A stretch of DNA of 64,000 bases from Verrucomicrobiota bacterium (GTDB lineage Bacteria > Verrucomicrobiota > Verrucomicrobiia > Limisphaerales > AAA164-E04): the NCBI GenBank assembly GCA_047947115.1, contig CP170459.1, positions 1,312,001-1,376,000 of the forward strand. Direction: 5' to 3'. Positions 27,821 through 60,892 of this stretch are shown piece after piece (positions within the stretch are counted from its first letter, which is position 1; each line of letters opens with the position of its first letter). The position numbers were made by a program, and so were the translations under genes. The notes under the pieces were generated by a model, which searched no databases, had not been told where the DNA came from, and worked only from the letters and a program-made list of their open reading frames with translations.

Positions 27821-28228
27821 ATGACCTCCATCTCACTCAGCTCTGTTGCGTTCAAACTGGACCAAGAACTACACAGCATATGGGCTGTTTACCTTTTCGG
27901 CTCTCATGCATCTAATCAAGCTATGCCGGAAAGTGATGTAGACATCGCTGTTCTCGGAAAGAGCCCCCATACAGCGACAGATTTGTTCAGTGTGAGTTCA
28001 GACATTGCTATCATGCTGAAGCGGAACGTCGATTTGATCGATTTACGCTCTGTCCCAACTGATCTCCAGGCCCAAGTGGTAACAAAAGGAAAGCGCCACA
28101 TTTTGAGAAATTTTCAAAAAGTGGAGGTCTTCGAAGATCTAGTTTTTTCAAGTTATGCCCGCTTGAATGAAGAGCGAAAGTATATTCTAGCAGACATACA
28201 ACAACGTGGCAGTGTCTATGGCAGATGA
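27821..28228 (+). CDS. Minimal nucleotidyltransferase (MntA-type antitoxin)
   Basis: VYLFGSHA....SDVDIAVL, VDLIDL; overlaps the downstream HEPN gene. Confidence 0.88.
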   Translation: MTSISLSSVAFKLDQELHSIWAVYLFGSHASNQAMPESDVDIAVLGKSPHTATDLFSVSSDIAIMLKRNVDLIDLRSVPTDLQAQVVTKGKRHILRNFQKVEVFEDLVFSSYARLNEERKYILADIQQRGSVYGR

Positions 28229-28658
28229 TACGTTGCTTAACAAGTGTGCGATCATCGAGCGGTGCCTCCAGCGTATCGAACAAGACTACATAGGCTTTGA
28301 AGATCAAATTGAGTCTGATTTCATGCGTCAAGATGCCATTGTCCTTAATATTCAAAGGGCATGTGAGGCATCCATCGATTTGGCCATGCATGTGGTGCGG
28401 TGCCGAAAACTTGGTTTACCAAGAGAAAGTCGGGGTGCGTTTGAATTACTGAGAACATCAGAACTGATGGACCATTCATTGGCTGAAAAAATGATGAAAA
28501 TGGTCTGATTCAGAAACCTTGCTGTTCACAATTACCAGAGTATCAATCTTGAAATCGTTCATTCGATTATTACCAAGCATCTCGATGACTTCCGCCAGCT
28601 CGTTAAATGGTCTATCCAATCAACTATTCAACAACCTCCAAGTAACTTTGTGACTTAG
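28218..28658 (+). pseudogene. HepT/DUF86 HEPN ribonuclease toxin with in-frame stop
   Basis: QDAIVLNIQRACEASIDLA; TGA at 28506-28508, then in frame FRNLAVHNY (RX4HXY) and an open frame to TAG 28658. Confidence 0.85.
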
Positions 28659-28673: not shown

Positions 28674-29654
28674 ATGAAAAAAGCCCTCATTACAGGAATC
28701 ACAGGTCAAGACGGATCCTACCTTGCGGAACTCTTGCTTGAAAAAGGTTACGAGGTCCACGGAATCCTTCGTAGAACCAGCACGTTCAATCGCCAGCGCA
28801 TTGACCCTATCTATCAGAACGCCGACCTGAATCAGGGTAGATTCCATCTACACTACGGAGATTTGGCGGATTCCCCATCCATTTATAAGCTGATCGAGCA
28901 AATCGCTCCGAACGAAATATACAACCTGGCTGCACAGAGTCATGTCAAAGTCAGCTTCGAGAACCCTGAATACACCGCAGACGTGGTTGCCACGGGGACC
29001 TTAAGACTTCTGGAAGCAAATCGCCAAACTGGAGTCATGGCTCGGTTTTACCAGGCCTCGTCGAGCGAAATGTTCGGTAAAGTCAGAGAAACACCCCAAA
29101 CCGAACTGACACCCTTTCACCCAAGAAGTCCCTATGGCGTCGCCAAGGTGTTTGCACACCAGATCACGGTGAATTACCGAGAATCCTACGACATGCACGC
29201 CAGTTGTGGTATCCTGTTCAATCATGAATCACCCCGTCGAGGTGAAAATTTTGTAACGCGCAAAATAACCCAATCGGTTGCCAAGATTCATAAAGGGCTT
29301 CAAGACAAACTTGTTTTAGGAAACCTGGATGCCAAGCGGGATTGGGGTTATGCCAAAGAATATGTCGAAGCCATGTGGCGCATGTTGCAGCAGGATGAAC
29401 CAGATGATTATGTGATCGCAACGAACGAGACACATTCTGTTCAGGAATTCCTCGAAATAGCTTTCAAACATGTAGGAAAAAACTATCAAGACTACGTGGA
29501 AACATCCTCTGCATACTACCGACCAGCGGAAGTGGATCTCCTGATAGGAGACTACACTAAAGCCAAAACCAAACTAGGCTGGCAGCCAGAAACAACTTTT
29601 GAAGGGTTGGTAAAACTGATGGTCGACTCTGATTTGGAGGCATTAAACGGCTAG
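28674..29654 (+). CDS. gmd: GDP-mannose 4,6-dehydratase
   Basis: [42 protein letters not shown]. Confidence 0.95.
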
Positions 29655-30124
29655 GGTAGCCCGTGACGTCCCTGTCGCGGAGAGAGATTCGGACAAGTAA
29701 TGTATCCGGCCGACTGCGAGATCCCTGATCCGTCATCTTTTATCAACCACCCGTCCCGCAGTTGCGGGTCTAGAGAACACAGAGGACACAGAGAGGAAAG
29801 AGTGGGAGATGAAGGTTTATTTTGCACTGTTCTACCGAACAGCCCAAAATAAACCTTCAGACTGTCAGCCCTGCGGGCAGCAACAGGTAGATCGGATCTT
29901 CTCGCGTTCTTTGGTAGGGATGGGCTGCTGCCCGTCCATGGATGACAGTTGCTTTCATAAACGCTTTAACCAATCAAAGCCGGATAACTTACGATCCCTT
30001 TTAAGTGTACTGCCTTTGAGGTTCCTTTGCCTTTTCATTCGAAAAATCAAAGGAAACTCAGAACTCTGTGCTCCTCAGTGTCCTCTAATGAGGTGCAACC
30101 GAGCGGGTGGTGAACATAACAATA

Positions 30125-30643
30125 ATGGCCCTTCTGGAAGAACCAAAACTTACAACCTCCCCATTAACCAAATCCTGCCAGGAGATGGTCTTAGCGGGTG
30201 GTCGGTTGAGTCAACTGCTTGGATTCCCCAAGTCAATAGGGCAAATATACGGTTTACTCATGTTTACGGATAAACCAATGTCTGCTGAGGACATCGGAAC
30301 AACTTTGTCCGTTAGCAAAGCAACCATCAGTAATAGCATTCGGCAGTTATCCAGTTGGGGAATCATTAGGCAAGTATGGATCCAAGGAGATCGCAAAGAT
30401 CACTATGAAGTGATTGAAGATTTTAGGGCTGTGATCAGGGCGGCAATGTCCGAAGTCATCAAGCCAAGAATCAATTCTTCGGGCCAACGGATTGAGCGCA
30501 TTTCATCATTCCTGGAAGAGGAAAATCAGTCTGGAGAAATCACACCAGACCTTTTTCAACTCCGAAAGCGCCGGCTTAAATCCATGACCAAGCACCATCA
30601 AGCCATTGGCAAGATGATACCGATGCTAGAAAAGCTGTTTTGA
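30125..30643 (+). CDS. GbsR/MarR family transcriptional regulator
   Basis: LGFPKSIGQIYGLL...PMSAEDI...LSVSKATIS..IRQL..WG.I..V...GDRKDHY. Confidence 0.85.
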   Translation: MALLEEPKLTTSPLTKSCQEMVLAGGRLSQLLGFPKSIGQIYGLLMFTDKPMSAEDIGTTLSVSKATISNSIRQLSSWGIIRQVWIQGDRKDHYEVIEDFRAVIRAAMSEVIKPRINSSGQRIERISSFLEEENQSGEITPDLFQLRKRRLKSMTKHHQAIGKMIPMLEKLF

Positions 30644-31237
30644 TCGGAGGTAGATCTTGACGTTTCTGGCGATTAGGTAAAATCCCGCGACTGCGTGGAT
30701 CCCCGGCGCGTAAGGTATTAGATCTGCCACTTTTTTTATTCACCACCTGTTCGGCTGCACCGCACTAGAGGCACAGAGATTCGAGAGTGGAAAGAGAAGG
30801 CTAAAAGGAAGAGAGAGTTGATGTTTTATTTTGTAATGTTCTTTTGAACAGCCCAAAATAAAACATCAAAGCCTCAGCCCTGCGGGCGGCAGGGTAGATT
30901 AGATCGTCCCTGGTGCGCCATGATAGGTAGAGCGTAAAGTGTGTCCCGTCGACTGTGGAGTCACTGTCGCGCGGTCATCAACGCCAATCGTTACCAATAA
31001 CGTTTAAATCTGTAGAATAACCATCAGTAATCGAATCCTTTTTAGTGTGCAATCTTTACACTTTATTCGACGATTTGACTTAAATCCTCAAATAAAGTGA
31101 AAAACCCCTCAAGCTCGATACTTTTAATTTCTCTCTCGAATCTCTGTGTCCTCAATCCCGCGACTGCGGGAGGGTGGTGAAAAAAGCACCGCGCCTCTAG
31201 TCCCGCTTGCGGGACGAACGTGAGATCCTATTACACA

Positions 31238-32209
31238 ATGTCAACATACCTCGTCACCGGTGTTGCCGGATTTATCGCATCCAAAACAGCTGAGTTCCTC
31301 CTTAGTGAGGGGCATACAGTGGTAGGTGTGGATAATATGAATGATTACTACGATGTCCGACTCAAAGAGCATCGTTTGGAAAATCTGCAATCCCAGCCTA
31401 ATTTTATATTTCATCAGCTGGATATCGAATCACAAGCTGACCTTGATGACTTGTTCAAGCAACACATCTTCAACGGCGTCCTCAATCTCGCAGCAAGAGC
31501 GGGGGTACGATACAGCTTGGAAAACCCACACGTCTACATGACGACCAACGCAATGGGCACGCTTAACTTGCTCGAATGCATGCGTCATCATGATGTGGAG
31601 AAAATGGTTTTGGCTTCGACGTCCTCCCTTTACGCGGGGCAGCAGATGCCGTTTACGGAAAAACTTCCAGTAAATACTCCCATTTCTCCTTATGCAGCTT
31701 CTAAAAAGGCAGCAGAGGTGATGTGTTATTCCTATCACAATCTTTTTCAACTCGATATATCAGTTGTCCGGTATTTTACGGTTTTTGGACCCTGTGGCCG
31801 CCCCGATATGTCCATTTTTCGGTTCATTAAATGGATTGCCGAAGAAACGCCAATTGAGTTGTTTGGAGATGGATCGCAATCCAGAGATTTTACCTTTGTA
31901 GACGATATCGCCAAAGGAAGCATTGCAGCACTCAAACCAATAGGATATGAAATTTTTAATTTAGGTGGTGGGAACAATCCCATTTCGCTAAACCAGATTA
32001 TTCAATGGATTGAAGAAAGTTTGGGTAAGAAAGCAATTATTGAAAACCAACCCTTCCATAAAGCGGACATGAAATCAACTTGGGCAGACATATCAAAAGC
32101 TGAGTCAATGTTAGAGTGGAAGCCTGAGATCGATATTAAAGAAGGCGTTCTCAAATGTGTGGAATGGTACCAGCAAAACCATTCCTGGCTCAAAGATATC
32201 AAACTGTAG
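31238..32209 (+). CDS. NAD-dependent epimerase (UDP-glucuronate 4-epimerase-like)
   Basis: TGVAGFIAS, LAARAGVRYS, PYAASKK, RYFTVFGP.GRPDM. Confidence 0.88.
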   Translation: MSTYLVTGVAGFIASKTAEFLLSEGHTVVGVDNMNDYYDVRLKEHRLENLQSQPNFIFHQLDIESQADLDDLFKQHIFNGVLNLAARAGVRYSLENPHVYMTTNAMGTLNLLECMRHHDVEKMVLASTSSLYAGQQMPFTEKLPVNTPISPYAASKKAAEVMCYSYHNLFQLDISVVRYFTVFGPCGRPDMSIFRFIKWIAEETPIELFGDGSQSRDFTFVDDIAKGSIAALKPIGYEIFNLGGGNNPISLNQIIQWIEESLGKKAIIENQPFHKADMKSTWADISKAESMLEWKPEIDIKEGVLKCVEWYQQNHSWLKDIKL

Positions 32210-32604
32210 GTAGCCCAATATCTCAGATTCACATTCGCAGGTAGATCAGAAAAGTGTATCCCGTTGACCGCGGAATCCCTGATCCTCTGTGAAAGGTAGA
32301 GCGTGACGTCCCTGTCGCGCTGGATAGATCTCCCGATAAATCGGGACTGATCCGCAATGCACCGGTAGGGATAGGCTGCTGCCTGTCCGTCGAATGCCAA
32401 GCATATCCAAATTTTCAATAACCGTTCAAATACCAGAAAACATACAACACCTTTTAAGTGTGACACCTTTTGTTTTTCTTTGTAATTACGGCTGGAATTA
32501 CAAAGAAAAACAAAAAACATCCTTTTTAACTCTGCAACCTCCCAACCTCTAGTGACCGCAGCTATGCTGAAAGTCCCGTGGCTGCGGGAGGTGGTGAAGA
32601 AAAA

Positions 32605-33894
32605 ATGCAAAAGACAACTATCGCAATCGTAGGCCTCGGCTATGTAGGTCTTCCACTTGGACTTCAGTTCGCCCGATCCGGTGTGAATGTCATCGGCTTG
32701 GATGTAGATAATTCCAAAGTGGATGCACTCAACCAAGGAAGAAGCTATATCAAGCACATCGCTGCTTCCGACATTCAGGAAGCAGTCAATAAAGGATGCT
32801 TTTCTGCTTCTACTGACTTTTCTAAAGTAACGGAAGTTGAAGCCGTCCTTATATGTGTGCCGACGCCACTGGACCAACATCGTGAACCTGATATTAGTTA
32901 TGTAATCAAGAGCGGAGAAGCCATCGCCCCTTTCTTAAAACCACCAGAAGGGGGAAGGAAGAAACTCATTGTTCTCGAATCGACGACCTATCCAGGAACG
33001 ACAGATACAGACCTTCGAGAAGTGCTTGAGAAAGGATCGGGATTGAAAGCTGGAGAAGATTTTCACCTGGCCTACTCGCCTGAACGAGAAGATCCAGGTC
33101 GCACTGATCATTCGGTAAAAAGCATACCAAAGGTGATGGGAGGATACACCTCCGACTGCCTGGAACGTTGCACGGAACTTTATCTGACTGCCCTTGATAA
33201 AGTGCATCCAGTCAAGTCTTGCCGCATAGCCGAAGCAACGAAATTGACCGAAAACATTTTTCGATCGGTGAACATTGCACTGGTCAACGAACTGAAATTG
33301 GTTTTTCACAAAATGGACATTGATGTGTGGGATGTCGTCGATGCAGCAGCAACCAAACCCTTTGGATACATGCCATTTTATCCAGGACCGGGATTAGGGG
33401 GACACTGCATTCCCATTGATCCATTTTACCTGACATGGAAAGCACGTGAGTACGAACAACACACCCGATTCATCGAATTGGCTGGTGAAATAAACACAGC
33501 CATGCCAGACTATGTGATATCCCGAGTGGCCGATGCTCTGAATGACGAAGGTAAATCCATCAAAGGAAGCCGGATCTTGTTGCTTGGTTTGGCCTACAAA
33601 CCCAATGTGGATGATGATCGTGAAAGCCCCAGTTACCGATTGATTGAAAAACTGGAACACAAAGGAGCCGAAGTTGCATACAACGACCCCCATGTTCCCG
33701 AAATCCGGCCGACCAGAGAATTCCCGCAATACGCAGGTCGAAAGTCGCAAGAAATTTCAGATGACTACGATTTGATCCTCCTGGCAACACACCACAAAGA
33801 ATACAAGGGATTTGATTTCAGCAATTACACGATTCCAATCGTGGACACACGCAATTGCATCACCAAACGACCCGATAAATACTACCAGGCATAG
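32605..33894 (+). CDS. Nucleotide-sugar dehydrogenase (WbpA-like UDP-GlcNAc 6-dehydrogenase)
   Basis: GLGYVGLP, LESTTYPGTT, SPEREDPG, GPGLGGHCIPIDP, DDRESPS. Confidence 0.9.
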   Translation: MQKTTIAIVGLGYVGLPLGLQFARSGVNVIGLDVDNSKVDALNQGRSYIKHIAASDIQEAVNKGCFSASTDFSKVTEVEAVLICVPTPLDQHREPDISYVIKSGEAIAPFLKPPEGGRKKLIVLESTTYPGTTDTDLREVLEKGSGLKAGEDFHLAYSPEREDPGRTDHSVKSIPKVMGGYTSDCLERCTELYLTALDKVHPVKSCRIAEATKLTENIFRSVNIALVNELKLVFHKMDIDVWDVVDAAATKPFGYMPFYPGPGLGGHCIPIDPFYLTWKAREYEQHTRFIELAGEINTAMPDYVISRVADALNDEGKSIKGSRILLLGLAYKPNVDDDRESPSYRLIEKLEHKGAEVAYNDPHVPEIRPTREFPQYAGRKSQEISDDYDLILLATHHKEYKGFDFSNYTIPIVDTRNCITKRPDKYYQA

Positions 33895-34595
33895 GTAGCT
33901 CGTAAAGTTTATCCCGTCGACTGCGGGATCCCTGTCGCGCCAGGTAGATCTCCCGATAAATCGGGACTGGTCCGCCACCATTATTTACCACCCGTTCGGC
34001 TGCGCCTCACTAGAGAACACAGAGGACACGGAGAGAAGAAAGGAAGCAGTGTTATTGTTTTGATCCGTTCATGCGAACAAATCAAAACAATAACACAAAC
34101 CGTCAGCCCCTCGGGCAAGTAAGGTAGTTCGTGACGTCCCCGTCGCGAGAAGTTATCCCATGGGCTGCAGGATTTCTACCTCGTTGCAAGGTAGATCGGA
34201 CCGTCCCTGGTCCGCACAACGTCTACTACATTCTTATTACGAAAACTATAAGGCACACGAATACTTTTAAGTGTGCTACTTTTTGATTTCTTAGGTTTTG
34301 TCCCAAACCTAAGAAATCAAAAAACCTCTGTGGTCCTCTGTGCTCTCAAGTGAGGAATCGAACGGGTGGTGAATAAAACAAAAACTCTGCGCTACCTCAT
34401 ACGAATCTCCCCATCTCAACCCCGCGGCTGCGGGAGGCGGTTAATACATCTGTGAAAATCTGTGACATCTGCGGATAAAAACAAACCAGCAAAAGCCCAA
34501 AAGCAATGGAACACGTTCTGTTCGGCATTTCTGGGGCTCAAGATAAAATTGGGAGCTGCATATACGTTTGAAGAGTAATCATTAATTGATCCAGT

Positions 34596-34913
34596 ATGCA
34601 TAATCTTCACATTCTACCTGTTCCACTGCTGAAGGAGCTAAAGGAAGTGGCACATAATTTCGAGTCATCAGGAATTCAATTAATACTTTTCGGATCTTTC
34701 GCGACTGGAAATGCGCGATCTACATCAGATCTGGATCTGGCCTTTGATAGTCGAGCTACCTCGGGGCAAGAGATCCGACAGCTTTACGGCCGTATCGATG
34801 ATTTACACACCATTCGCTCGGTGGATTTAGTAGACCTGCAAAAAGTCGATCCTGGAGTAGCTGAGGAAATAAAAAATAACGGACGGATACTCTCCGAATG
34901 CCTTGCTGATTGA
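34596..34913 (+). CDS. Minimal nucleotidyltransferase (MNT), orphan
   Basis: LILFGSFATG....SDLDLAF, VDLVDL. Confidence 0.85.
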   Translation: MHNLHILPVPLLKELKEVAHNFESSGIQLILFGSFATGNARSTSDLDLAFDSRATSGQEIRQLYGRIDDLHTIRSVDLVDLQKVDPGVAEEIKNNGRILSECLAD

Positions 34914-35386
34914 TTCACCACCCGTTCGATTGCACCTCACTAGAGAACACAGAGGGCACAGAGAGGGCGGGGAGACGTTGTTTTATTTTGGGCTATTCAA
35001 TTGAACAGCCCAAAATAAAACAGCAAACCATCAGTTCCGCGACCGTGGGACAGGCTGAAAGGTAGATCGGATCATCCCTGATCCGCATAGCGCCCAGAGC
35101 ATTCAACACCCCGCTCGTATCATGAAAACAAAAAATGATTCACACCCTTTTAAGTGTGCTACCTTTTTGATTTCTTTGGTTTTTTCCGAAAACCTAAGAA
35201 ATCAAAAAACTCTGTGGCCCTCTGAAACTAGATTGTCCCGTCGACTTCGGGATGAACTCAAGTGCCAATTACTCACTACAGCGCTGAAAGTCCCGCGGCT
35301 GCGGGAGGTGGTTAATAAAAAATCCGCCTTCCAACGACATTAATAAAGATCTGCGATCATCTGCGAAATCTGCGGTTAAACACATC

Positions 35387-36319
35387 ATGCGTATTCTAGT
35401 AACAGGAGGAGCCGGATTCCTCGGCAGCCACCTCTGCGATCGGCTCATCGAGCAGGGCCACGAAGTCATCTGCCTCGACAACTTTTTCACCGGAGATAAA
35501 CAGAACATCCGACACTTGCTCAGCCACGATCATTTCGAGTTAATCCGCCACGACGTTATTGATCCGTTCAAAGCAGAAGTAGACCAAATCTACAACTTGG
35601 CCTGTCCGGCATCACCGGTTCATTATCAACACAACCCCATTAAAACTATCAAAACATCGGTGATGGGAGCAATAAATGCGTTAGGATTGGCAAAAAGAAC
35701 CGGAGCACGAGTATTGCAAGCCTCTACATCGGAGGTCTACGGCGATCCAGAGGTGCACCCGCAAACCGAGGCATACCGTGGAAACGTCAACCCCATTGGC
35801 CCACGATCTTGTTACGACGAAGGCAAACGAGTCGCTGAAACCTTGTTCTTCGATTACCATCGGCAGAATAAAGTAAACATAAGGGTGATGCGTATCTTCA
35901 ATACCTACGGCCCCAGAATGCATCCGCATGACGGACGAGTTGTATCAAATTTCATTGTGCAGGCATTAAACAATGAGCCCATTACAGTTTATGGAGATGG
36001 ATCACAAACCCGATCCTTTTGTTATATGGATGATTTGCTGGATGGTATGATTCGATTGATGAACCACGATTCGTTAACCGGACCGGTGAACATCGGCAAT
36101 CCGGGCGAATTCACGATTCTGGAACTTGCTCAAAAAGTAATTGAAAAAACAGGCTCAAAATCAGAAATCATCCACAAAGACCTCCCAACCGACGATCCGT
36201 TACAACGTAAACCAGATATAACCTTAGCCAAAAACGAACTCGACTGGGAACCAAAAATCAACCTGGACCAAGGCCTGGACAAAACCATCACCTATTTCAG
36301 GACACTTTTAGATAGGTAG
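35387..36319 (+). CDS. UDP-glucuronic acid decarboxylase (UXS-like)
   Basis: [46 protein letters not shown]. Confidence 0.92.
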
Positions 36320-36856
36320 ATCGGACCGTCCCTGGTCCGCCACCATCTTAATTCACCACCCGTTCGATTCCTCACTAGAGGACACAGAGATCACAGAGAG
36401 AAGAGGTGAGATGATGATTTATTTCAGCCCGCTCTATCGAACAAACTGAAATAAATCATCAAACTGTCAGCCCAGGTAGAACGGATCGTCCCTGATCCGC
36501 TGGTAAGGTAGAGCGTAAAGTTTATCCCGTCGGCTGCGGGATCTCAGTACTGGGGGTAGAGATCCCGACCTGTCGGGACTGCCTGTCCGCAAATTCTGGA
36601 CCGCAATCACAGACGTATTCAACGAATAGAAGTCAAATAAACATACGATCACCTTTTCAGTGCGAATACTTTTGGTTTTCTTTGGAATTGCAGCTAGAAA
36701 TTCCAAAGAAAACCAAAAACCTCCCTTTACTCTCTGTGGTCCTCCCAATCTCTAGTGACCGCAGGACGCTCTCTCTTGAAGGTAAATTGCGCTGAAAGTC
36801 CCGCGACCGCGGGAGGTGGTGAACAAAAAAACTCTGCGTGAGAAAACACCTAAAAT

Positions 36857-37108
36857 ATGATACTCCAGTACATTGAGAAAGCGCTTAGCCTGGCTCATTA
36901 TGAGATCATCGATGACGAAGATCCCTATTATGGTGAAGTACCTGGATTGGATGGAGTATTGGCTAGTGGAAAAACACTTGAAGATTGTCGTTACCAATTA
37001 GCCCAAGTGGTGGAGGATTGGATACTATACAGCATCGCCAACAAATTACCCATTAATTCACTCGAAGGGATTACCGTCAAAGTACCCGAAATGGTGGCAA
37101 ATGACTGA
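36857..37108 (+). CDS. HicB-like antitoxin, orphan
   Basis: YYGEVPGLDGVLASGKTLEDCR..L..VVEDWI. Confidence 0.8.
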   Translation: MILQYIEKALSLAHYEIIDDEDPYYGEVPGLDGVLASGKTLEDCRYQLAQVVEDWILYSIANKLPINSLEGITVKVPEMVAND

Positions 37109-37334
37109 TGGGACGTTTAAATCCGTCGAATAACCATCAGTAAACGAACCCTTTTAAGTGTGCCCCCATTTGCTTTTGTTTGGAGTTTTCGAATGAGAAT
37201 CCCAAACAAAAGCAAAAATCTCCCAGTCTCAAAAAAAACTCTCACGAATCTCCCAATTTCAAGAGACCGCAGGGAACGGGTGGTGAACAAAAACTGTCTC
37301 CAGACCACATCCTAAAGTGTTGCATGTAGTATAG

Positions 37335-37676
37335 ATGGAATTCATCGAAACACCCCATTTCACTAATCTGATTACCCAATACGTTCCTGATGAACACTAC
37401 CGTGCGCTACAACTCGAATTGCAAGCCAACCCTGAAAAGGGGGATCTCATTTCCGGCTCCGGTGGACTTCGGAAGATTAGGGTCGGTTTACCTGGAAGTG
37501 GGAAGCGTGGATCGGCCCGGGTGATTTATCTGTATCTCAAGATTGAAAATCTCATCTACTTTTTGTTGATCTATCGTAAATCCAAATCCGAAAACCTCAC
37601 CCGATCCCAGGTAAGCGAACTACGAGCGCTTGCCGATCAAATCAAGCAGGCCTATCGCCATGAAAGCAGAAAATAA
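37335..37676 (+). CDS. RelE/HigB-like toxin
   Basis: FIETPHF...NPEKGDLISGSGGLRKIRV....GKRGSARVIY...Y.KS..ENL. Confidence 0.85.
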   Translation: MEFIETPHFTNLITQYVPDEHYRALQLELQANPEKGDLISGSGGLRKIRVGLPGSGKRGSARVIYLYLKIENLIYFLLIYRKSKSENLTRSQVSELRALADQIKQAYRHESRK

Positions 37677-37983
37677 AAGAGAATTACCGGAATTCAGTTT
37701 TAAGGACTTAAAACATAGCCTGGGGCAAGCATTGAGAGAGGCGAAAGATAATGGCACGTGCCGAAAGATTAAATTACCGGAACCAATCGTTGAAATCCCG
37801 CCGAAGGAGATAAGAAGAATACGCACTCAGCTTCAAGTAAGCCAATCCGTATTTGCCGCGATGCTGAATGTTCCATTGAAAACGGCCGTTAGCTGGGAAA
37901 CCGGACTACACAAGCCAACCAGAGCGGCATTACGTCTATTAGACATTGCACGGAAGCATCCAGATATTCTTTTTGAAGCTTAA
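37660..37983 (+). CDS. XRE-HTH antitoxin (HigA-like)
   Basis: IRRIRTQLQVSQSVFAAMLNV...VSWETG..KP..AALRLL; overlaps the toxin. Confidence 0.85.
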   Translation: MKAENKRELPEFSFKDLKHSLGQALREAKDNGTCRKIKLPEPIVEIPPKEIRRIRTQLQVSQSVFAAMLNVPLKTAVSWETGLHKPTRAALRLLDIARKHPDILFEA

Positions 37984-38623
37984 TTTACCACCCGCTTGGA
38001 TGTGTAAGGTAGATCGGGCCATCTCTGGTCTGCCACAATAGGTAGCCCACAATGGTAGGGATGAGTTGCTGCTCGTCCGTTCATCCGCCACCAATTATAT
38101 TCACCACCCGTCTTGCTGCGCGCGACTAGAGAACACAGAGGGCACTGAGAGAAAAGAGAAGGAAAGGGAAGGGAGGAGTTGATGTTTTTATTTCGCCCTG
38201 TTCTGTCGAACAAACCGAAATAAAACCACAAACTGTCAGCCCTGCGGGCGGCATGGTAGTCCGCGACGTCCCTGTCGTGAAGGTAGCTCTCCCGATACAT
38301 CGGGACTGGTCCGCCGTGACAGGTAGAGCGTATAGTTTATCCCGTCGACTGCGGGATCCCTGTCGTGCGGTCATTAACGCCAATCGTATCCAACAACGTT
38401 TAAATCCGTAGAATAACCATCAGTAAACGAACCCTTTTAAGTGTGCCATCTTAAGTTTTTCTTTGTTGTTTTCATCCGAAAAGACCAAAGAAAAACTTAA
38501 ACCTCTCAAGACTTAAACATCCTCTCTCGAATCTCTGTGTCCTCAATCCCGCGACTGCGGGAGGGTGGTGTAAATTAAATTCTACGTCCCTGCGACTCCG
38601 CGTGAGCAAAAAACAAGCAAGCC

Positions 38624-39151
38624 ATGGACTTCAAACAAGTCGACGCACTAGCCAGCCAAGAACCCCCACTATCCTATCTGGTTATTGGTGGCTATGCAGT
38701 CGCCGCCCATGGATATTCAAGGTTAACCTTTGACATAGATATTTTAATTCGTCGAGTTGATAAAGAAGTTTGGCATGAACGATGTTTAAACATGGGATTG
38801 CGATGTATTGGCCAGTCAAACTCATTTTCTCAATATGATGGCACAGACAAAAGATTGGACCTGATGTTTGTTGATGATCAATCATTCAATAAAATGAATG
38901 CTGATTGCATCACACAAGACTACGATCAGATCCATACCAAGGTAGTAGGATTGGATCATCTAATTGCATTGAAGTTGCACGCGTTGAAAAACGCACCAGA
39001 GCACCGTGTATCAAAAGATTTCAACGACATAGAAATGTTGGCGAAAAATCACAGATTGCAGTTAAAAAGCGAGCATTACAGAGGATTTTTTCTTAAATAC
39101 GGCACCGACAAGATATACGAAACACTGCTGAGATGCCTTAAATATGATTAA
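38624..39151 (+). CDS. Pol-beta-superfamily nucleotidyltransferase
   Basis: YLVIGGYAVAAHGYSRLTFDIDIL, LIALK....R..KD..DI. Confidence 0.8.
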   Translation: MDFKQVDALASQEPPLSYLVIGGYAVAAHGYSRLTFDIDILIRRVDKEVWHERCLNMGLRCIGQSNSFSQYDGTDKRLDLMFVDDQSFNKMNADCITQDYDQIHTKVVGLDHLIALKLHALKNAPEHRVSKDFNDIEMLAKNHRLQLKSEHYRGFFLKYGTDKIYETLLRCLKYD

Positions 39152-39341
39152 ACCTGTTCAAGAACATGCAGATTTGGAACTACCAACGGATTCACCGCCG
39201 GTTCAAGTTCCGCCTCAAATTTCCCTGGATACAATGCAGCGAAGAATTGAGGAGATTGCGAAGATGTTCCCACAGAACGTTCCCACACCCGAAGAACGAC
39301 TCAGAACCAAAATAGACGTCCTTTTCGAGTTAAAGGAATAG
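39144..39341 (+). CDS. Small hypothetical protein coupled to the nucleotidyltransferase
   Basis: 65-aa ORF overlapping the upstream stop and filling the gap to the next spacer. Confidence 0.55.
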   Translation: MIKPVQEHADLELPTDSPPVQVPPQISLDTMQRRIEEIAKMFPQNVPTPEERLRTKIDVLFELKE

Positions 39342-39918
39342 GTATACCACAATGGTAGGGATTGCGCTGCCGCGCGTCCGTTCAGCCGCCACCAATTTTA
39401 TTCACCACCCGTCTTGCTGCGCGCGACTAGAGAACACAGAGGGCACAGAGGGCACAGAGAGAAAAGAGAAGGATAGGGAAGGGAGGAGTTGATGCTTTTA
39501 TTTTGGCCTGTTCTGTCGAACAAACCGAAATAAAACCACAAACAATCAGTCCCGCGACTGCGGGACGGGCGGCATGGTAGTCCGCGACGTCCCTGTCGCG
39601 TAGGTAGCTCTCCCGATACATCGGGACTGATCCGCTGGTAAGGTAGAACGGAAAAGTGAATCCCGTCGACTGCGGGATCCCTGATCCGCCACAAGAGGTA
39701 GGCCACAATGGTAGGTAGATCGGACCGTCCCTGGTCCGCATTAACCCAGACGCATTCGACAAACGTAATCAGTGAACAAACACCAATAAATCTCCTTTAA
39801 CTCTCTGTGGCCCTCCCCACTTCTAGTGACCGCAGCTATGCTGAAAGTCCCGTGACTGCGGGAGGTGGTTTAAATTAGACTTTGTGGTCCTTGTGACTTT
39901 GTGTGAGCGCTAAAACAA

Positions 39919-40146
39919 ATGAAAAAAACACTGACCGCCATTATTCGAGCAGAAGATGATGTTTATGTAGCGCTTAACCCCGAACTGGACATAGCCAGTC
40001 AAGGTGCTACGACCCAACATGCGCTGAGTAATTTGCAAGAAGCTGTTGATTTGTTCCTGGAAACAGCATCAAAGGAGGAAATAGAGGAGCGATTAAGAGG
40101 TGAATCCTTGGTAACACAATTTGTGGCTGAGTATGCCCCCGCTTAA
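39919..40146 (+). CDS. HicB-like antitoxin, orphan
   Basis: YVALNPELDIASQGAT..HALSNLQEAVDLFLE. Confidence 0.85.
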   Translation: MKKTLTAIIRAEDDVYVALNPELDIASQGATTQHALSNLQEAVDLFLETASKEEIEERLRGESLVTQFVAEYAPA

Positions 40147-40505
40147 GAAGTTTATCCCGCCGACTGCGGGATCCCAGTCGCGGCGGTAGGGATAGGCTGC
40201 TGCCTGTCCGCAAAGGTAGATCGGACCGTCCCTGGTCCGCATTAACCCAGACGCATTCGACAAACGTAATCAGTGAACAAACACCAATAAACATTACGTG
40301 ACCTTTTAAGTGGCGCCCCTTTACGTTTTCTTTGACGATTGAACCACAATCTTCAAAGAAAACGTAAAACCCTTAAAGTTCATTACTTACAACTACTCAC
40401 TCAAACCTCTGTGGCCTTCCCTGTCTCTAGTGACCGCAGCTATGCTGAAAGTCCAGTGACTGCGTGAGGTGGCGAACAAAAAATACTGCGTCCCTGCGAC
40501 TCTGC

Positions 40506-40796
40506 GTGAGAATTACACCAAAAGAACAATCAATCATCCGTGAATCGATCCTGGCATTGGACCCAGAATCCTCGATCTACCTATTTGGGTCACGAGTGGA
40601 TGATCACGCGAAAGGTGGTGACATAGATCTATTGGTGATATCCGACAAACTTGAATTCCGAGATCTCTTAAAACTGAGACGGCTTATACTGGACCAGATA
40701 GGTTGGCAGCAATTGGATCTCATCATCAAAAAGTCCACTGAACTGAGTCAACCATTCGTAGAAGAAGCCATCGAAACAGGGATCTTGCTTACGTGA
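40506..40796 (+). CDS. Minimal nucleotidyltransferase (MNT)
   Basis: GTG start; IYLFGSRVDDHAKGGDIDLLV. Confidence 0.85.
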   Translation: MRITPKEQSIIRESILALDPESSIYLFGSRVDDHAKGGDIDLLVISDKLEFRDLLKLRRLILDQIGWQQLDLIIKKSTELSQPFVEEAIETGILLT

Positions 40797-41154
40797 CGCA
40801 TTAAACTCACCACCCGTTCGATACCTCACTAGAGAACACAGAGGACACAGAGAGAAGAGGAGGTGTTTGAAGGTTTATTTTGTAACATTCTATCGAATAT
40901 CCCAAAATAAACCAACAAACTGTCAGTCCAGGTAGATCGGACCGTCTCTGGTCCGTCATAACCTCAAACGCACTCAACAACGCTGATCACTGACGAAGCC
41001 TTTTAAGTGTGCACCCTTTTTGAGTTCTTTGGCGTTCTGAATTAGAACTACAAAGAACTCAAAAATCTCTGTGATCCTCTAGAGACCGCAGGAAACGGGT
41101 GGTAAAACAAAAAATCTGCGACCATCTGCGTAAATCTGCGGATAAATAACAAAC

Positions 41155-41607
41155 GTGAACGATCGTCCGAAAGCACTACTTCAAGCTAACCTCGATGATC
41201 TACTACGGGCCAAAAAACATTTGGATTACTCGTATAGGCAGATAATTAGCTACGATGCGGAATTCGAGGAGTATAATGAAGAACAATTGGAAACCGTGGA
41301 GGCCTTCACAAGTCGGTTTGCACGTTGTGCGGATTTACTGGTGAACAAGGTTCTGAGATCGTTGGATCGTTATGAACTGAAACCGGGAGGGACATTATTA
41401 GATGTGATCAATAGGGCAGAGAAGCGTGGGATTATCTCAAATGTCGGGGAGTTAAGAGAAATGAAAGACATTAGGAACATCATCGCACATGATTACGCGG
41501 GAATCCAAATGGAACAGGTGTTTGAATACTGCAAACAAAAGAAACCACATTTTGACGAAATTTGCCACAACCTGAAGAATTACGTGGATCGTTTGCAGAT
41601 AATTTAA
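41155..41607 (+). CDS. HEPN-domain protein (MNT partner/toxin)
   Basis: EAFTSRFAR..D, DVINRAEKRG, IRNIIAHDY (RX4HXY). Confidence 0.83.
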   Translation: MNDRPKALLQANLDDLLRAKKHLDYSYRQIISYDAEFEEYNEEQLETVEAFTSRFARCADLLVNKVLRSLDRYELKPGGTLLDVINRAEKRGIISNVGELREMKDIRNIIAHDYAGIQMEQVFEYCKQKKPHFDEICHNLKNYVDRLQII

Positions 41608-42229
41608 ATCGAATCATTAATGAATTAATTCACCACCCGGCTCGCTGCGCGCGACTTGAGAGCACAGAGGACACAGAGAGAGAAGGAGGGGATGATGTTT
41701 TATTTCAGCCCGTTCTATCGAACGAACTGAAATAAATCATCAAACTGTCAGCCCAGGTAGATCGGACCGTCCCTGGTCCGCCGGTAAGGTATTTGGAAAA
41801 ACACTATCCCGTCGACTGCGGGATCCCTGGCGCGTAATGGTAGCTCGGATCGTCCCTGATCCGTAAATCCCCAATCGCTGCCAACAACGCTTACAACATA
41901 GAACAAGCAGCCAAATTACGATCTCCTTTTCAGTGCGAATACTTTTGTTTTTCTTTGTTATGACGGCCAGTAATGCCAAAGAAAAACAAAACCTCTCGAT
42001 ACTCTCTGTGGCCCTCCCAATCTCTAGTGACCGCAGCAATGCTGAAAGTCCCGTGACTGCGGGAGGTGGTAAAACAAAAGTCTGCGACCATCTGCGTAAA
42101 TCTGCGGATAAATAACAAAAGCAAAAACTTCTTATAAACACTCTATGCCCCTCCTTTCCTCTAGTGACCGTAGGGAACGGGTGGTTGAACAACAAAAACT
42201 CTGCATCTCCGCGTGAGAAAAGACGAAAA

Positions 42230-42442
42230 ATGAAAGAAATTATATTTGAGGTATTGGAACAACCTATGGGACAGGGGTTTGTTGCTACAGCAGTTGGGAT
42301 AGGTGTTCACACTGAGGCTGACACACTCGAAGATTTACGTCAAAATGTGCGTGAAGCCGTGGATTGCCATTTTGACGATTCAATGGATGCTCCGAAGCTC
42401 ATCCGTCTCCATTTTGTTCGGGATGAGGTATTGGCCAGATGA
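42230..42442 (+). CDS. HicB-like small antitoxin
   Basis: EIIFEV....GFVATA..IGVHTEADTLEDLRQNVREAVDCHF; ATGA overlap with hicA. Confidence 0.78.
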   Translation: MKEIIFEVLEQPMGQGFVATAVGIGVHTEADTLEDLRQNVREAVDCHFDDSMDAPKLIRLHFVRDEVLAR

Positions 42443-42681
42443 GAACACCACGGGATTTATCTGCGAGTGATTTGGAAAAAGCGTTAAAAGGTCTTGGATA
42501 CGAAAAAACACGAAAGAAGGGATCACACATACGATTAACAACAAATTTAGATGGTGTACATCACGAGACAATTCCGAATCATGATCCGATAAAGATTGGA
42601 ACACTGTCAGCTATTCTGAAGAGCATTGCAAATCACCATCCCATGACGGTAAGTGAATTAATGGAGCAATTAGGCTTATAA
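42439..42681 (+). CDS. HicA family toxin
   Basis: LKGLGYEKTRKKGSHIRL...TIPNHDPIKIGTLSAIL. Confidence 0.87.
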   Translation: MRTPRDLSASDLEKALKGLGYEKTRKKGSHIRLTTNLDGVHHETIPNHDPIKIGTLSAILKSIANHHPMTVSELMEQLGL

Positions 42682-43370
42682 GCATTCGAATTCTACACTG
42701 CCCATTTAATTGAAATAATCCAAGCAGTTGGACAGGCGGCAAGGTAGATCTCCCGATAAATCGGGACTGATCCGCAACGAAAGGTAGATCGTAAAGTTTA
42801 TCCCGTCGACTGCAGGATCCCTGGTCCGCATTAGCTCATATGCATTCGACAAACCCGATCCTTAACGAATACCCAGTAGCATACAATGTGCATACCTTTT
42901 GTTTTTCTTTGTAATTACGACTGGAATTCCAAAGAAAAACAAAAACCTCTCATTACTCTCTGTGCCCTCCTTTTCTCTAGTGACCGCAGGGAACGGGTGG
43001 TGAACAAACCAAAACAATACTACAAACTACCAGCCCTGCGAGCAGCAAGGTAGCCCGCAACGCCTCTGTCGCGCAGGTCATTCGGAAAAGTTTACACTAA
43101 TGGGGTCCAACAACGTTCTGCGCGATTAAACGGAAATAAACACACGCACCCCTTTTAATCAGACATTTTTGACTTTCTTAGATGATTTAACCAAAATCCT
43201 CGAAGAAAGTTAAAACCTCTCTCTCTGTGATCCTCCCAATCTCAAGTGAGGAATCGAACGGGTGGTGCAAATTAACCTTTGTGGACCTTGTGACTTTGTG
43301 TGGTAATAATTTGTTTCCTACGCTTGACTGAGACAGAACTTAGATAGTAATGTGGTCCGTCTACACGGTT

Positions 43371-43447
43371 GGTGGCCGTAGTTCAGTTGGTAGAGCCCCA
43401 GATTGTGGTTCTGGTTGTCGCGGGTTCGAGTCCCGTCGGTCACCCCA
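43371..43447 (+). tRNA. tRNA-His (GUG)
   Basis: G-1:C73 pair, acceptor GTGGCCG/CGGTCAC, anticodon arm CCAGA-TTGTGGT-TCTGG, T loop GGTTCGAG, encoded CCA; TTGACT upstream at 43324. Confidence 0.96.
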
Positions 43448-43992: not shown

Positions 43993-44034
43993 GTGCCCGT
44001 TTGAAAGGATACAATTTTTCACAAAAGATAGTTA

Positions 44035-45543
44035 GTTGATCCTTAAAAACTCACGATAGGTGCAATTTTATTGGGTTTTTTGCGGTTTTTGCTTCGCCAT
44101 TTCGACCGGGGAAAAGTATAGTTATTGAAGTTCCTGGTCGATTTGCATCTATGAAATTAAAGCTCAAGCCTTCCCAACAACGATCACTCCTTTTTCCCAC
44201 ACTCTCCGAACAGTGTGATCCGCGGCAACCACTCAAAAAATTGGCCGACGCCATTCCTTGGGATAAGTTCGAAGACGCTTTTTCGGATTACTACAGCGAG
44301 GTAGGGCGGCCCGCCAAACCCATCCGTTTGATGGTGGGCTTGCTGCTATTGAAACAAATTTAAAATTTGAATGATGAGGTCGTCGTTGAAAGATGGATCC
44401 AGAATCCCTACTACCAGTATTTTTGCGGGATGACGGAATTTGAGTGGGACTTTCCCTGCAATCCATCCGACCTGGTTCATTTTCGAAATCGGATCGGTGA
44501 AGAAGGTGTGCATCTGATCTTTGCAATTACCACTGACCTTCATCGCAATCGAATTGAAAAGGAGAGTGAGATCATTGTGGATACCACGGTTCAGGAAAAG
44601 AACATAACTTTTCCAACGGATAGCAAACTACATTCACGGATTATCGGTCGATGCTGGCGCCTGGCCGACAAGTATGGAATCAAACTGCGACGGCGTTATC
44701 GCAAAGAGCTGCGAGAATGTTTGCTGAGCCAAAGATGGAGGTGTCATCCTGGAGAAGCCAAGCTTGCACGCAAGGCGCAAAAACGTATCAAGATAATCGC
44801 GGGTATCCTTCTGCGTGAACTGGATAGAAAACTGCCCAAAAAAAATTCTTAAAGCTCACCTTGAAGATTTCAAACTTTACCTTCGAGTCTTGAATCAACA
44901 GAAGAACGACAAGAATAAGGTCTACTCTTTGCATGAACCGCAGGCCTACTGCATCGCCAAGGGCAAGGAAAACAAGAAGTATGAGTATGGCAGTAAAGCA
45001 TCGGTCGCCGTAACAGCAGATACAGGCATCATTGTCAGTGTTGTTGCTCATCCTGAAAACATATATGATGGCCATACTTTACCGGAAGTCTTCGAATTAG
45101 CGGAAGCAGTCATGGGAGAACGACCGAAGAAGGCCATTGTGGATCGTGGCTATCGAGGCGAAAAACATATTGATGGAACGGACATACTTTCACCCGAGAA
45201 CGGGAAAGCTGAACAAACCAAATCAGAGAAGGCAAAGATGCGACAACGGTTTCGAAAACGAAGCGGAATCGAAGCAATCATAAGCCATCTCAAACATGAT
45301 TTCCGATTATTGAGATGTTACTTGAAAGGCAGTCTGGGAGATACAATGAATTTGTTGCTGGCTGCCTGTGCCTGGAATCTGAAGAAATGGATGGGGGCCG
45401 TTTCTTTTCGTCAAATATACCTAATTTGTAACCAGATTAAGGCACTCATGTCATCCCTCAGGGGACTTTTTTCAAATCTGACACGTTACAAAAGGTTCGT
45501 TGGATTCCGATAGGAATTCTTAATCCCTTTTTTAAGGATCAAC
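44035..45543 (+). mobile_element. IS5-family element with disrupted transposase
   Basis: TIR GTTGATCCTTAAAAA/TTTTTAAGGATCAAC; 6-bp TSD TAGTTA; transposase 44151-45513 split by TAA 44361 and a frameshift in an A run near 44840. Confidence 0.88.
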
Positions 45544-45569
45544 TAGTTAATTGACTCACAAAACAACAA

Positions 45570-46450
45570 GAACGGTTCATTACCTGTAATTAGATTCCCA
45601 AGACGCCGGCTCATCCGTTTTATTACCGACTCAATCAGGTTTTTGCTGAGTGTGGTTTTGATGTCTATGTTGAAGGGTTGTGCGCCATGTTTTGCAAGAA
45701 TTTTGGCAGTTCAGGCATTGCCCCGGAATTTATTTACGAATGATTTTTATTTGATATTCTTAAGATCTTAAAGGTCAGAAAAATATCGCATGGCAATTTT
45801 ATGACAGCCTTTGCTTGCGTGAATTTTTCTATAAGTTCCAAAGAAAGAACTCTTGCGTACAACGATTATTCGTCAACCCTTTTCTGATGATGTTTTTCAC
45901 AAAGTTTCCTTTTGGTGCTCGAACAATTCAAAGAAAAAAGTAATTGAAGGGCAAAACGTTATGAGATTGAGATCAAAAGCCTGGATCCCAACTCAGCCAT
46001 GGGCAGCTTAGCATCGTACACAAGGGCGCGGGTGAAGATCGGAAAAATTCCTGCCTTAACTTGCCAATAAATAAAATACCGAGAATCGAAGGTGTGCAGG
46101 CATTCAAGCGCATCGAAATAGGTAGAAGCATAGATTCTTAGAGAGAAGCTCATATAGGCTATCAAAACGGAATCACTAACGAACAGGCATTCCCCATCAG
46201 GCGTTGAAGAGTTGGAAGTCATAAAGGTATACGGCTGAGTCCAAAACAAAGCAAACTTGTGGAGCGAATATTTGCTAATAGGTTTAGAGTAGGAAAAGGA
46301 CGTCGAACTTGGCTCCTAAGATATAAAAAACCACCAAGATTCACACACTGAAATGCGCAGCATTCAATGTCGGGTTGCTTTTGAGGAAAATCTTTTGATT
46401 CGCGAGGGCAAAAAATTTGGAATCGAGATTCGACACAGCTTTGACATCTG
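45570..46450 (+). pseudogene. Decayed IS1182-like (DUF772) transposase remnant
   Basis: Fragments translate to AHPFYYRLNQVFAECGFDVYVEGLC, IAWQFYDSLCLREF and CAAFNVGLLLRKIF; boundaries approximate. Confidence 0.55.
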
Positions 46451-46504
46451 TTTTATCATGGTTTTGGCGAAATGATGCCTCAGGGAGACTTAAAGTTGAC
46501 TTCA

Positions 46505-46550
46505 ATCGGATTTGAACCATCGGATTTGAACCATCGGATTTGAACCATCG
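46505..46550. repeat. Tandem repeat ATCGGATTTGAACC x3
   Basis: Three exact 14-bp copies plus a partial ATCG. Confidence 0.9.
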
Positions 46551-46661
46551 ATCTGTGATGCATCGGGAAATCCATGCGTAGCGATATTTGAATCACTCGG
46601 ATTTTCACATTTTGCACTAATTAAACGGGGTAGTAAGGATAATTCTTATCTGTTAATCAAA

Positions 46662-47738
46662 ATGGAACAATTGTATGTAATTAAAACTGACTGGCACGAT
46701 CAAGTTGTTCAGAGGGCGTTTGAGAAAATTGGATACTCCCCTGCTGAAGTTCATCAGGTTGTTAGAAATTGTCGCGCTGCTCTTGAGAATGGAGTGCGCA
46801 CACATAATGCGATCAAAGCAATTCATTTAGAAGCCTTGTTTGGTGTTCGGCAAGGAGGAACAACTTGTGGTGCAAACATACTAAAACAAAAGCGAAAATT
46901 TAGTGCTGTGAAATTTTGGGACGCACAAAAAAAGATTGGTCCTGCCGTCGCATATGAAGCCGTCGATGAATGTGCAGCCATGGCGGAGGACTATGGGGTG
47001 GGTGTTGTGGCCGTCGATAATGCGTGGCATTATTTTTGGGGAGGAGGTTATGTCCTAGAACTAGCGCAACGCGGATTTATTGGATTCACTATCTGTACCG
47101 CTTTACTCGCCGAAGTTGTGCCTTATGGAGGCTCCAAGCCAGTTTTAGGTACTAATCCGCATTCTTGGGGACTGCCAACGCAAGAAGTATGCGGATTTCC
47201 TGTTTTAGTTGATTGGGCTACTTCGGTAATAAGTATGGGAAAAGCACAACAACTTGCCCGTGAGGGAAAATCATTACCTTATCAATGTGCCGTCAATCAG
47301 AAGGGTAATGTGACAAATGACCCAAAACAAATCGCAGGACTTTTGCCTTTCGGGTTACACAAAGGTTATGGGCTAAGTCTGATCAACGAATTGATCGCTG
47401 GAATTATAGGTGGATGGAAGCCCACCGAAAGGGGAAGATTCGCGGAAGGATATAAAAAATCAAGTACTACCTTCCTCTTCCTCGCCCTTCATCCCGAGGC
47501 TATTGAGGGTAATTTTGTGAGTTCTGACAGAAAAGAAAACTTAAAATCGATTGTGAATGACATCCTTTGTAAAGAGAATCAAGGGGCCATTTTACCGGGG
47601 CAATTAGAATATGAAGCTCGTTGCAGATGTCAACAGGCTGGAGGCCTACTATTAACTGAAGCTGAATTTAATTCCTTCAATGAAATTGCTAAAAAAAACC
47701 AATTGGACACACACTCGCCAGTCCGATACAGATCTTGA
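46662..47738 (+). CDS. Ldh_2 family (malate/L-lactate/sulfolactate-type) oxidoreductase
   Basis: V.PYGG..P.LGTNP, LVDWATS, HKGYGLSL..E, LPGQ.E. Confidence 0.85.
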   Translation: MEQLYVIKTDWHDQVVQRAFEKIGYSPAEVHQVVRNCRAALENGVRTHNAIKAIHLEALFGVRQGGTTCGANILKQKRKFSAVKFWDAQKKIGPAVAYEAVDECAAMAEDYGVGVVAVDNAWHYFWGGGYVLELAQRGFIGFTICTALLAEVVPYGGSKPVLGTNPHSWGLPTQEVCGFPVLVDWATSVISMGKAQQLAREGKSLPYQCAVNQKGNVTNDPKQIAGLLPFGLHKGYGLSLINELIAGIIGGWKPTERGRFAEGYKKSSTTFLFLALHPEAIEGNFVSSDRKENLKSIVNDILCKENQGAILPGQLEYEARCRCQQAGGLLLTEAEFNSFNEIAKKNQLDTHSPVRYRS

Positions 47739-47751
47739 ACTCCATATATTT

Positions 47752-48540: not shown

Positions 48541-48569
48541 GTTGACTGAATACGTACGGTAGGAGAAGA

Positions 48570-49271: not shown

Positions 49272-49306
49272 CACTTCACGTGAGTTGGATCCTCAAGTAT
49301 TATACA

Positions 49307-49893: not shown

Positions 49894-50050
49894 CAGGGGA
49901 TGGCCAACTTGATTGGCAAGGAAGTCGGTGATTATTGCAAATTGTGGATGCACGCCTTCTTCACCAATCCGATTTCAAAATGAACTAGGTCGTATGGATT
50001 GCATGGTAATTACCAATCAAATTCTATTATACCACAAAACTAATATTAAT

Positions 50051-52537: not shown

Positions 52538-52576
52538 ATATTAATAAGATTTCTGGATCCATCTTTCGAGGACAAC

Positions 52577-52792: not shown

Positions 52793-52943
52793 TCATCACT
52801 GAAATTTTAGATTAGTTTAAGGAGCAGCAAACCCACTATCAAACGGATGGGTTTGGCGGGGTGTTCCACCTCGCTGCAGTAATCAGAAAAAGCATTTTTT
52901 AACTTATTCCAAGGAACAGCATAGGCAGATTACTTGAGTGGTT

Positions 52944-60857: not shown

Positions 60858-60892
60858 TCAATTATACCAATGCGGTATTCATAACATAATTT

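Follow-up and report, generated by a model that had tools for sequence, protein, structure and literature searches.

A composite intergenic repeat with two long hairpins in a polysaccharide locus of a Verrucomicrobiota bacterium, and its possible part in gene shuffling

Why should a single polysaccharide locus carry the same short box and the same kind of hairpin between one gene and the next, always in one orientation? The question arises from a 64,000-nt stretch of contig CP170459.1 (GCA_047947115.1) of a Verrucomicrobiota bacterium. This stretch is termed the window here, and feature coordinates are window positions. A first-pass annotation had described 13 copies of a hairpin, termed hairpin B, most with an upstream box, but had not recognized the larger repeat, bounded by inverted arms, to which they belong. 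When the window sequence from 25.6 to 47 kb was read and its motifs mapped, box and hairpin B proved to make up the right-hand half of a composite repeat of ~300–470 bases that lies between genes. The explanation favoured here, with modest confidence, is that the repeat is a one-orientation recombination hot spot that swaps and reorders sugar and toxin-antitoxin genes, that it descends from a gene-less GxxExxY cassette, and that the box and the fixed-length hairpins are its recognition site.

Structure of the repeat

The unit consists, in order, of a left arm, hairpin A, the sequence TCAGCCCTGCGGGC, a variable spacer, the box, hairpin B and a right arm. The left arm contains TTCACCACCCG, a small hairpin, the word CTWGAG, CACAGAG words and a purine run, and the right arm is its reverse complement. 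Hairpin A is typically 52 nt in length and also co-varies. Stacks of GGTAG modules that resemble repetitive extragenic palindromic (REP) sequences occur in the spacers and at gene ends, and two families of these modules recur genome-wide. Whole repeats are predicted to fold as long end-to-end stems. With its terminal inverted repeats and no coding capacity, the unit has features of miniature inverted-repeat transposable elements (MITEs). Eight complete units lie in the window; the remaining copies are without one half.

29743–30112, + strand: complete repeat 1; hairpin A 29810–29859, box 29998, hairpin B 30017–30062, both arms; between gmd and a helix-turn-helix (HTH) gene
30739–31179, + strand: complete repeat 2; hairpin A 30818–30869, box 31038, hairpin B 31055–31103
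32209–32596, + strand: partial repeat; GGTAG REP-like stack, box 32451, hairpin B 32468–32515, right arm; left arm and hairpin A absent
33984–34371, + strand: complete repeat 3; hairpin A 34049–34096, box 34264, hairpin B 34280–34323; extra right arm at ~34417–34442
34914–35313, + strand: complete repeat 4; hairpin A 34979–35022, box 35147, hairpin B 35164–35208; left arm 1 nt past a stop codon
36352–36821, + strand: complete repeat 5; hairpin A 36412–36461, box 36653, hairpin B 36670–36718
37151–37285, + strand: right half alone; box 37151, hairpin B 37169–37216, right arm
38100–38570, + strand: complete repeat 6; hairpin A 38177–38234, box 38434, hairpin B 38451–38500
39401–39870, + strand: repeat with box and hairpin B deleted; strain contig L160 keeps both at the same place
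40303–40474, + strand: right half alone; box 40303, hairpin B 40320–40368, right arm
40806–41104, + strand: complete repeat 7; hairpin A ~40865–40920, box 41000, hairpin B 41017–41065
41629–42071, + strand: complete repeat 8; hairpin A 41693–41742, box 41926, hairpin B 41943–41991; lone right arm at ~42159–42186
42880–43045, + strand: copy with worn box; hairpin B 42897–42944; right arm joined at GAAC to a hairpin A 3′ arm (43003–43045)
43152–43267, + strand: copy with worn box, the last before tRNA-His; hairpin B 43167–43215, right arm

The GAAC fusion at 43003–43045 is, to judge from its sequence, probably the scar of a deleted cassette. Genome-wide, 16 B and 15 A hairpins were counted, every one of them in this single polysaccharide locus and in the same orientation, with A before B on the + strand and no inversion. 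Three of the B and six of the A hairpins lie outside the window, 34–44 kb past its last copy, at the opposite end of this polysaccharide region. Eleven A–B pairs are complete in the genome, with an A-to-B separation of 152–274 nt.

The box and hairpin B

All 13 hairpins were found with the arms and positions first given for them. Their total length is 44–50 nt, and 49 nt in seven. The box, here written CTTTTHAGTG, was likewise confirmed: it ends 6–9 nt before the hairpin in 11 of the 13 copies and is degenerate at 42897 and 43167. On the + strand of the 58-kb locus it occurs 14 times (13 times beside a hairpin B and once as a stray at 55005), whereas 0.2 occurrences are expected from the rest of the genome; the − strand has none. 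Hairpins of this size with a T-rich 5′ arm number 28 in the locus versus seven in the other 6.0 Mb of the 6.08-Mb genome.

Co-variation of the stems was borne out in an alignment of 26 copies, 16 from this genome, six from two relatives and four from strain contigs. Pairing of the 15-bp outer stem with its own arm is 0.907 versus 0.72 for swapped arms, and none of 10000 shuffles was as high. Both sides have changed in 13 of 20 stem pairs (0 of 500 shuffles; slid controls were lower), and three or four Watson–Crick pair types are in use at stem positions 4–7. Because the copies are related by descent, these shuffle counts are not probabilities. The description of the element as a conserved box plus a structure-only stem needs qualification: the box does stand at a fixed distance from a stem conserved in structure, but the T-tract positions in that stem are nearly invariant. 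Similarly, the polarity is indeed opposite to that of a terminator, but it has no orienting value, since a palindrome has a T-rich 5′ arm on both strands.

The alternative that the box is a simple promoter element finds no support. Sigma-70-like matches number 15 versus 19.2 expected, with none at a common place; a promoter and terminator scan of the repeats gave chance levels, and no −35/−10 hexamers occur at a shared place by the box. The 5′ end of group II introns is GUGYG, and the likeness to this motif and to JUMPstart/ops extends over a few bases only.

Every copy has the orientation of the operon, and this raises the question of whether the repeat functions at the RNA level. It would then fold in the operon transcript, and its 22–24-bp AU-rich stems would be RNase III processing or antitermination sites that set gene levels. 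The long end-to-end folds of whole repeats are consistent with such a device, a second NusG-family gene is present in the genome, and contigs from RNA runs cover the array. However, the − (non-coding) strand gives the better fold of hairpin A for 21 of 26 copies (20 of 26 with RNA parameters), and hairpin B shows neither a strand bias in folding nor a G–U excess on the coding strand. Structure in mRNA is disfavoured on account of these strand properties. In addition, tRNA-His alone scored above the Rfam threshold in 26–47 kb, and repeats flank reversed genes as well. The RNA runs are available as contigs, which give no starts, ends or strand and from which transcription is not provable; four RNA runs of one listing contain next to none of the repeat words. 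An RNA-level device is distinctly improbable.

A different proposal concerns regulation at the DNA level: the hairpins might be extended LexA operators that place the cassettes under SOS control. Of 19 loci from this order, 10 have at the start of lexA the sequence TGTTC-N4-(G/A)AACA, which is taken here to be the LexA motif of Verrucomicrobia and was checked on lexA upstream regions only. The apex of hairpin A holds six of the genome's 17 perfect TGTTC-N4-GAACA sites, and the hairpin A model weakly matches the lexA palindrome. Yet just six of 15 hairpins A have a perfect site, and the apex co-varies (GTTC/GAAC, ATTC/GAAT and others), which points to structure and not to sequence. Hairpin A also lies after genes, and hairpin B is mostly without the site. 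LexA control is therefore credited with hardly any likelihood. At lexA itself (G000:C1:3336525-3336576), the start codon is within a 52-bp palindrome centred on the LexA box, with a left arm that mirrors the first codons; in relatives the central box of this palindrome is kept and the long arms are not.

Variation between strains

Eight metagenome contigs, seven of them from near-identical strains, were compared with the genome. Genes match closely, and the repeats are reassembled from other copies. Template switches number 64 (three contigs share several of them) and are spread over all modules, with no single conserved crossover position; outside the box they fall in the REP modules, the arms and the pre-box and post-hairpin segments. 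The test first proposed was whether strain breakpoints map to the box: one of the 64 switches lies cleanly within it, and three more border it beside unmatched sequence. The interpretation of the element as a nick or recognition site is thus divided. A nick at the box is unsupported because the breakpoints are scattered over the repeat, whereas recognition fits the maintenance of the element across genomes with orthologues ~68–77% identical in DNA. When pairwise identities are taken separately for the pre-box segment, the box, the hairpin and the post-hairpin segment, they correlate weakly with one another (rho −0.04 to 0.34, with the lowest values towards the box). Exchange therefore takes place to either side of the hairpin. 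The end points of deletions differ and coincide with short shared words.

Gene order varies as well. Contig L164 has a HEPN gene (3 mismatches in 533 nt), a repeat and a UDP-sugar dehydrogenase gene in succession, an order absent from this genome, and two upstream cassettes are missing from it. Contigs L161 and L166 have a HEPN gene of which this genome retains a remnant only, L162 has a gene pair absent from this genome, and L160 retains the box and hairpin B that are deleted here. Alternative joints within repeats, some found in several runs, are among the joints listed for contigs of four DNA and four RNA runs from marsh, estuary and seawater.

Comparison with cassette systems and other repeats

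The usual attC site is 55–141 bp in length, and in oriT the hairpin is 5′ of the nick. Both types of site bear on the possibility of a dedicated cassette system, in which the repeats would fold as single strands, in the manner of attC, and serve for site-specific recombination, with the box as the nick or crossover site for an HUH enzyme (Y1 or relaxase type) or for the genome's integron integrase. The resemblance to integron arrays and CALIN (PMC8618304) consists of tandem single-gene units with one repeat per gene, one orientation, toxin-antitoxin cassettes and a strain-variable order. The left arm begins 1–33 nt past the stop codon in five genes, and some cassettes are reversed. The fixed hairpin lengths and the preference of hairpin A for the − strand also speak for such a system. 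The box resembles the oriT core TAAGTGCG (PMC10378824). The arm tips, RTTCACC and GGTGAAY or variants, have a GGT/ACC core and resemble the R′′/R′ of this genome's own integron, but are not the canonical R′′ (RYYYAAC) and R′ (GTTRRRY).

On the other side, crossovers are not at one base, the locus has no integrase, and resident sugar genes are included in the array. The sites are several times longer than the usual attC. In seven repeats whose left arm was compared with the reverse-complemented right arm, the tips pair through the place of the attC unpaired spacer, with no constant bulge or extrahelical base. The hairpin is 3′ of the box, as opposed to its place in oriT, and neither strand of hairpin B folds preferentially. 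The locus gave no match to Y1 or tyrosine recombinases. In an IS200/IS605 or REP–RAYT element a Y1 transposase would be flanked by the same hairpins; the five Y1 matches of the genome have other flanking repeats, and the stretches inspected around them are without these hairpins. A dedicated site-specific system is on balance unlikely. An integron integrase lies 0.6 Mb away, and the attC sites of that integron (G000:C1:739000-742223) have GGT/ACC cores. In the relative G002, genes that flank the integron in the present genome adjoin the polysaccharide locus instead.

NIME arrays, composed of dRS3 and RS elements, are described in PMC1797815 as mosaic intergenic repeats by surface-structure genes whose modules vary by strain, and they are proposed there to increase exchange of the adjoining genes, through either homologous recombination or a specific recombinase. 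The Verrucomicrobiota array shares the mosaic make-up, the strain-variable modules and the placement of recombination end points next to surface genes. The resemblance is functional. Here, in contrast, an ordered 300–470-bp unit carries two long fixed-length hairpins and a box, with one copy per gene gap, in one locus and with toxin-antitoxin cargo. No dRS3 (ATTCCC-N8-GGGAAT) was noticed on reading 25.6–47 kb, although no search aimed at dRS3 was made.

A second parallel is with the Ssn nucleases and their NTS/SRM repeats, for which PMC11893778 describes a small single-domain nuclease gene and a hairpin repeat, with hairpin-adjacent sequence deciding the cut. Ssn is of the GIY-YIG type, whereas the candidate described below is a predicted nuclease of the PD-(D/E)XK type (PF13366), and the hairpins are ~50 nt and AT-rich. 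The REP, REPIN and BIME elements with their RAYT proteins, and prokaryotic MITEs, are also non-coding inverted-repeat elements; GTAG-type REP-like modules occur in the spacers here, and arm pairs are dispersed in other phyla. However, the composite unit keeps to one locus, its arms are associated with GxxExxY genes rather than with a Y1 transposase, and no target-site duplication was seen in the flanks. By these comparisons the repeat may be likened to NIME arrays and to the Ssn/NTS pairing, but it appears to be a member of neither, nor does it appear to be an attC array.

Phylogenetic distribution

The covariance model of box and hairpin B matches three of seven relatives in the genus (G002, G004 and G007; the relatives are 75–94% complete), but none of 14 other genomes of the family and none of 120 others of the phylum. 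An exact pattern was found in two of 401 genomes of the order. Viral contigs gave no match to the hairpin A pattern or to that of box and hairpin B, and contained one GxxExxY relative. The sole hairpin A match outside the genus, in G008, was rejected as a palindromic contig end. In the relatives the unit again sits amid polysaccharide and toxin-antitoxin genes, and one orthologous gene, at 86–87% DNA identity, is above the range given earlier. In the sister genus eight epimerase loci were found and seven inspected; in all seven the orthologous epimerase is in a compact operon with a different gene order and no repeat, and therefore the repeat entered a resident operon. A literature search in which subscription papers and supplements were outside the scope found no description of this repeat, nor of GxxExxY cassette repeats. 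In the G002 locus an Ssn-sized GIY-YIG gene (L023:8523-8804) lies right after tRNA-His, a place where the window has none.

The conservation bears on whether the array is a neutral accumulation, in which dead repeats are spread by gene conversion, symmetric stems arise via template switching, the box is kept by conversion only and shuffling is a by-product. Many copies are truncated, REP-like modules found genome-wide have piled into the spacers, and several hairpin stems are perfect palindromes while others are not, all of which would suit such an origin. But the box core, the box–hairpin distance and the hairpin lengths are kept in four species despite gene divergence, whereas flanking segments are not, and the order of A, spacer, box and B is never inverted in this genome. 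A purely neutral origin is very unlikely.

The arms and GxxExxY genes

A scan with the left-arm pattern gave at least 122 loci, in Verrucomicrobiota, Chlamydiota, Planctomycetota, Desulfobacterota and others; these partly duplicate relatives already counted and are not independent, and 42 have 300-nt flanks only. Many are short arm pairs that are dispersed in the manner of MITEs. A GxxExxY (PF13366) gene or remnant is within 300 nt of the arm at five of the 122 loci listed, and at six with a second query; one of these is the gene in a relative's own array. At two GxxExxY-linked loci a reading frame extends out of the arm. Inverted arms were also found at five further GxxExxY loci inspected in the genus and at the genome's own locus, one having an arm on one side only. 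The arms of the repeat are thus of the type that brackets PF13366 genes, and right arms of the types found at GxxExxY loci follow repeats within the array.

In G002 the single GxxExxY gene forms part of the array, with wecB on one side and a left arm on the other. A PF13366 match is present in all four repeat-bearing genomes (broken in G004) and absent from three of the four genomes without the repeat. The protein models as a PD-(D/E)XK fold with a pLDDT of 93; a fold search gave general PD-(D/E)XK neighbours only (best Z 8.6), and a PDB sequence search with the protein gave nothing significant. At one chromosomal site, G000 and G001 have GxxExxY genes with different arm types (L148 and L228), so that the arms around a given gene are evidently replaced over time. 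The arm type of the repeat is also found in two other lineages (L031 and L039), beside a nucleotidyltransferase-like gene or in a sugar-gene region with a GxxExxY gene.

Proposed mechanism and significance

Under the hot-spot explanation, a gene-less GxxExxY cassette would have acquired its two long hairpins, inserted into a compact operon and increased in copy number there. The box and fixed-length hairpins would be kept by a protein that recognizes them as extruded or single-stranded DNA. A cut may then be made at the box or hairpin, the best candidate enzyme being the GxxExxY PD-(D/E)XK nuclease acting in trans, and the cut may be repaired by homologous recombination with another copy. Because of such repair, crossovers would be expected throughout the sequence that copies share, rather than at a single base. 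Toxin-antitoxin genes may accumulate because they resist loss between direct repeats. Directly observed are the anatomy of the unit, its restriction to a single locus, its conservation within one genus, the family of its arms, and the mosaic modules and differing gene orders of near-identical strains; the cutting, the candidate enzyme and selection for variation are inferred.

Several observations weigh against this explanation. Co-variation in palindromes can also arise by template switching without selection. The strain contigs are short-read assemblies that may be chimeric at repeats, and the array is not covered end to end by any one record. The G002 assembly is a 75% draft in which an inversion interrupts a gene. 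Neither a target-site duplication nor a clean empty site was found at the repeat flanks that were read. G001 carries two GxxExxY genes and yet no repeat. In the present genome the lone GxxExxY gene is 2.4 Mb from the array, it is 40% identical to the one in the G002 array, and its arm is a related but different variant. Among 38 loci listed, most arm matches elsewhere adjoin ordinary genes with no nuclease nearby, and no long hairpins were found within 450 nt of arms outside this genus; thus nothing ties the hairpins themselves to GxxExxY.

A bolder version holds that the locus is an integrase-free cassette system, with multi-hairpin sites of 300–470 bp, putatively cut by the GxxExxY nuclease at box and hairpin, that captures, exchanges and reorders capsule and toxin-antitoxin genes. 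This is conceivable but doubtful; if true, it would represent programmed surface variation in a marine bacterium. Environmental polysaccharide loci are often interrupted by toxin-antitoxin genes and short repeats. With its ordered modules, natural deletion alleles and strain variants, the locus offers a concrete candidate substrate for the widespread and uncharacterized GxxExxY family. It also allows a test of whether nuclease–repeat pairs of the Ssn/NTS type drive surface variation outside Neisseria. Were the nuclease to cut fixed-length hairpins beside the box, it would be a compact structure-specific DNA tool.

Genes of the locus

The repeats separate sugar-nucleotide genes from one another and from genes of toxin-antitoxin type, as assigned by Pfam, and the array in the window stops at tRNA-His.

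28674–36319, + strand: sugar-side genes, encoding GDP-mannose dehydratase, an HTH protein, two NAD-dependent epimerase/dehydratases, a UDP-sugar dehydrogenase and a minimal nucleotidyltransferase
34596–34913, + strand: the minimal nucleotidyltransferase gene, with the remnant of its HEPN partner, recognized by comparison with L161 and L166
36857–42681, + strand: toxin-antitoxin-type genes, namely UPF0150/HicB-like, RelE and HTH antitoxin, an AbiEii-like pair, DUF7387, nucleotidyltransferase, HepT-like, and a small gene with HicA
43372–43447, + strand: tRNA-His, directly after the array

Besides lacking Y1 transposase and tyrosine recombinase genes, the locus has no four-helix-bundle (PF05635) or NusG gene. 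In several toxin-antitoxin pairs of the array one partner has been lost (36857, 39919 and 34500–34590), and a TGA at 28508 interrupts a HepT-like gene (28206–28590). The middle of the locus (window 44000–64000 and G000:C1:1376000-1389000) is low in GC and crowded with transposases of the IS5, IS66, IS3, ISL3 and IS4 types; it also holds a reverse transcriptase-like open reading frame and group II intron fragments. At 46505–46550, ahead of a dehydrogenase gene, there is a 14-nt tandem repeat in three perfect copies.

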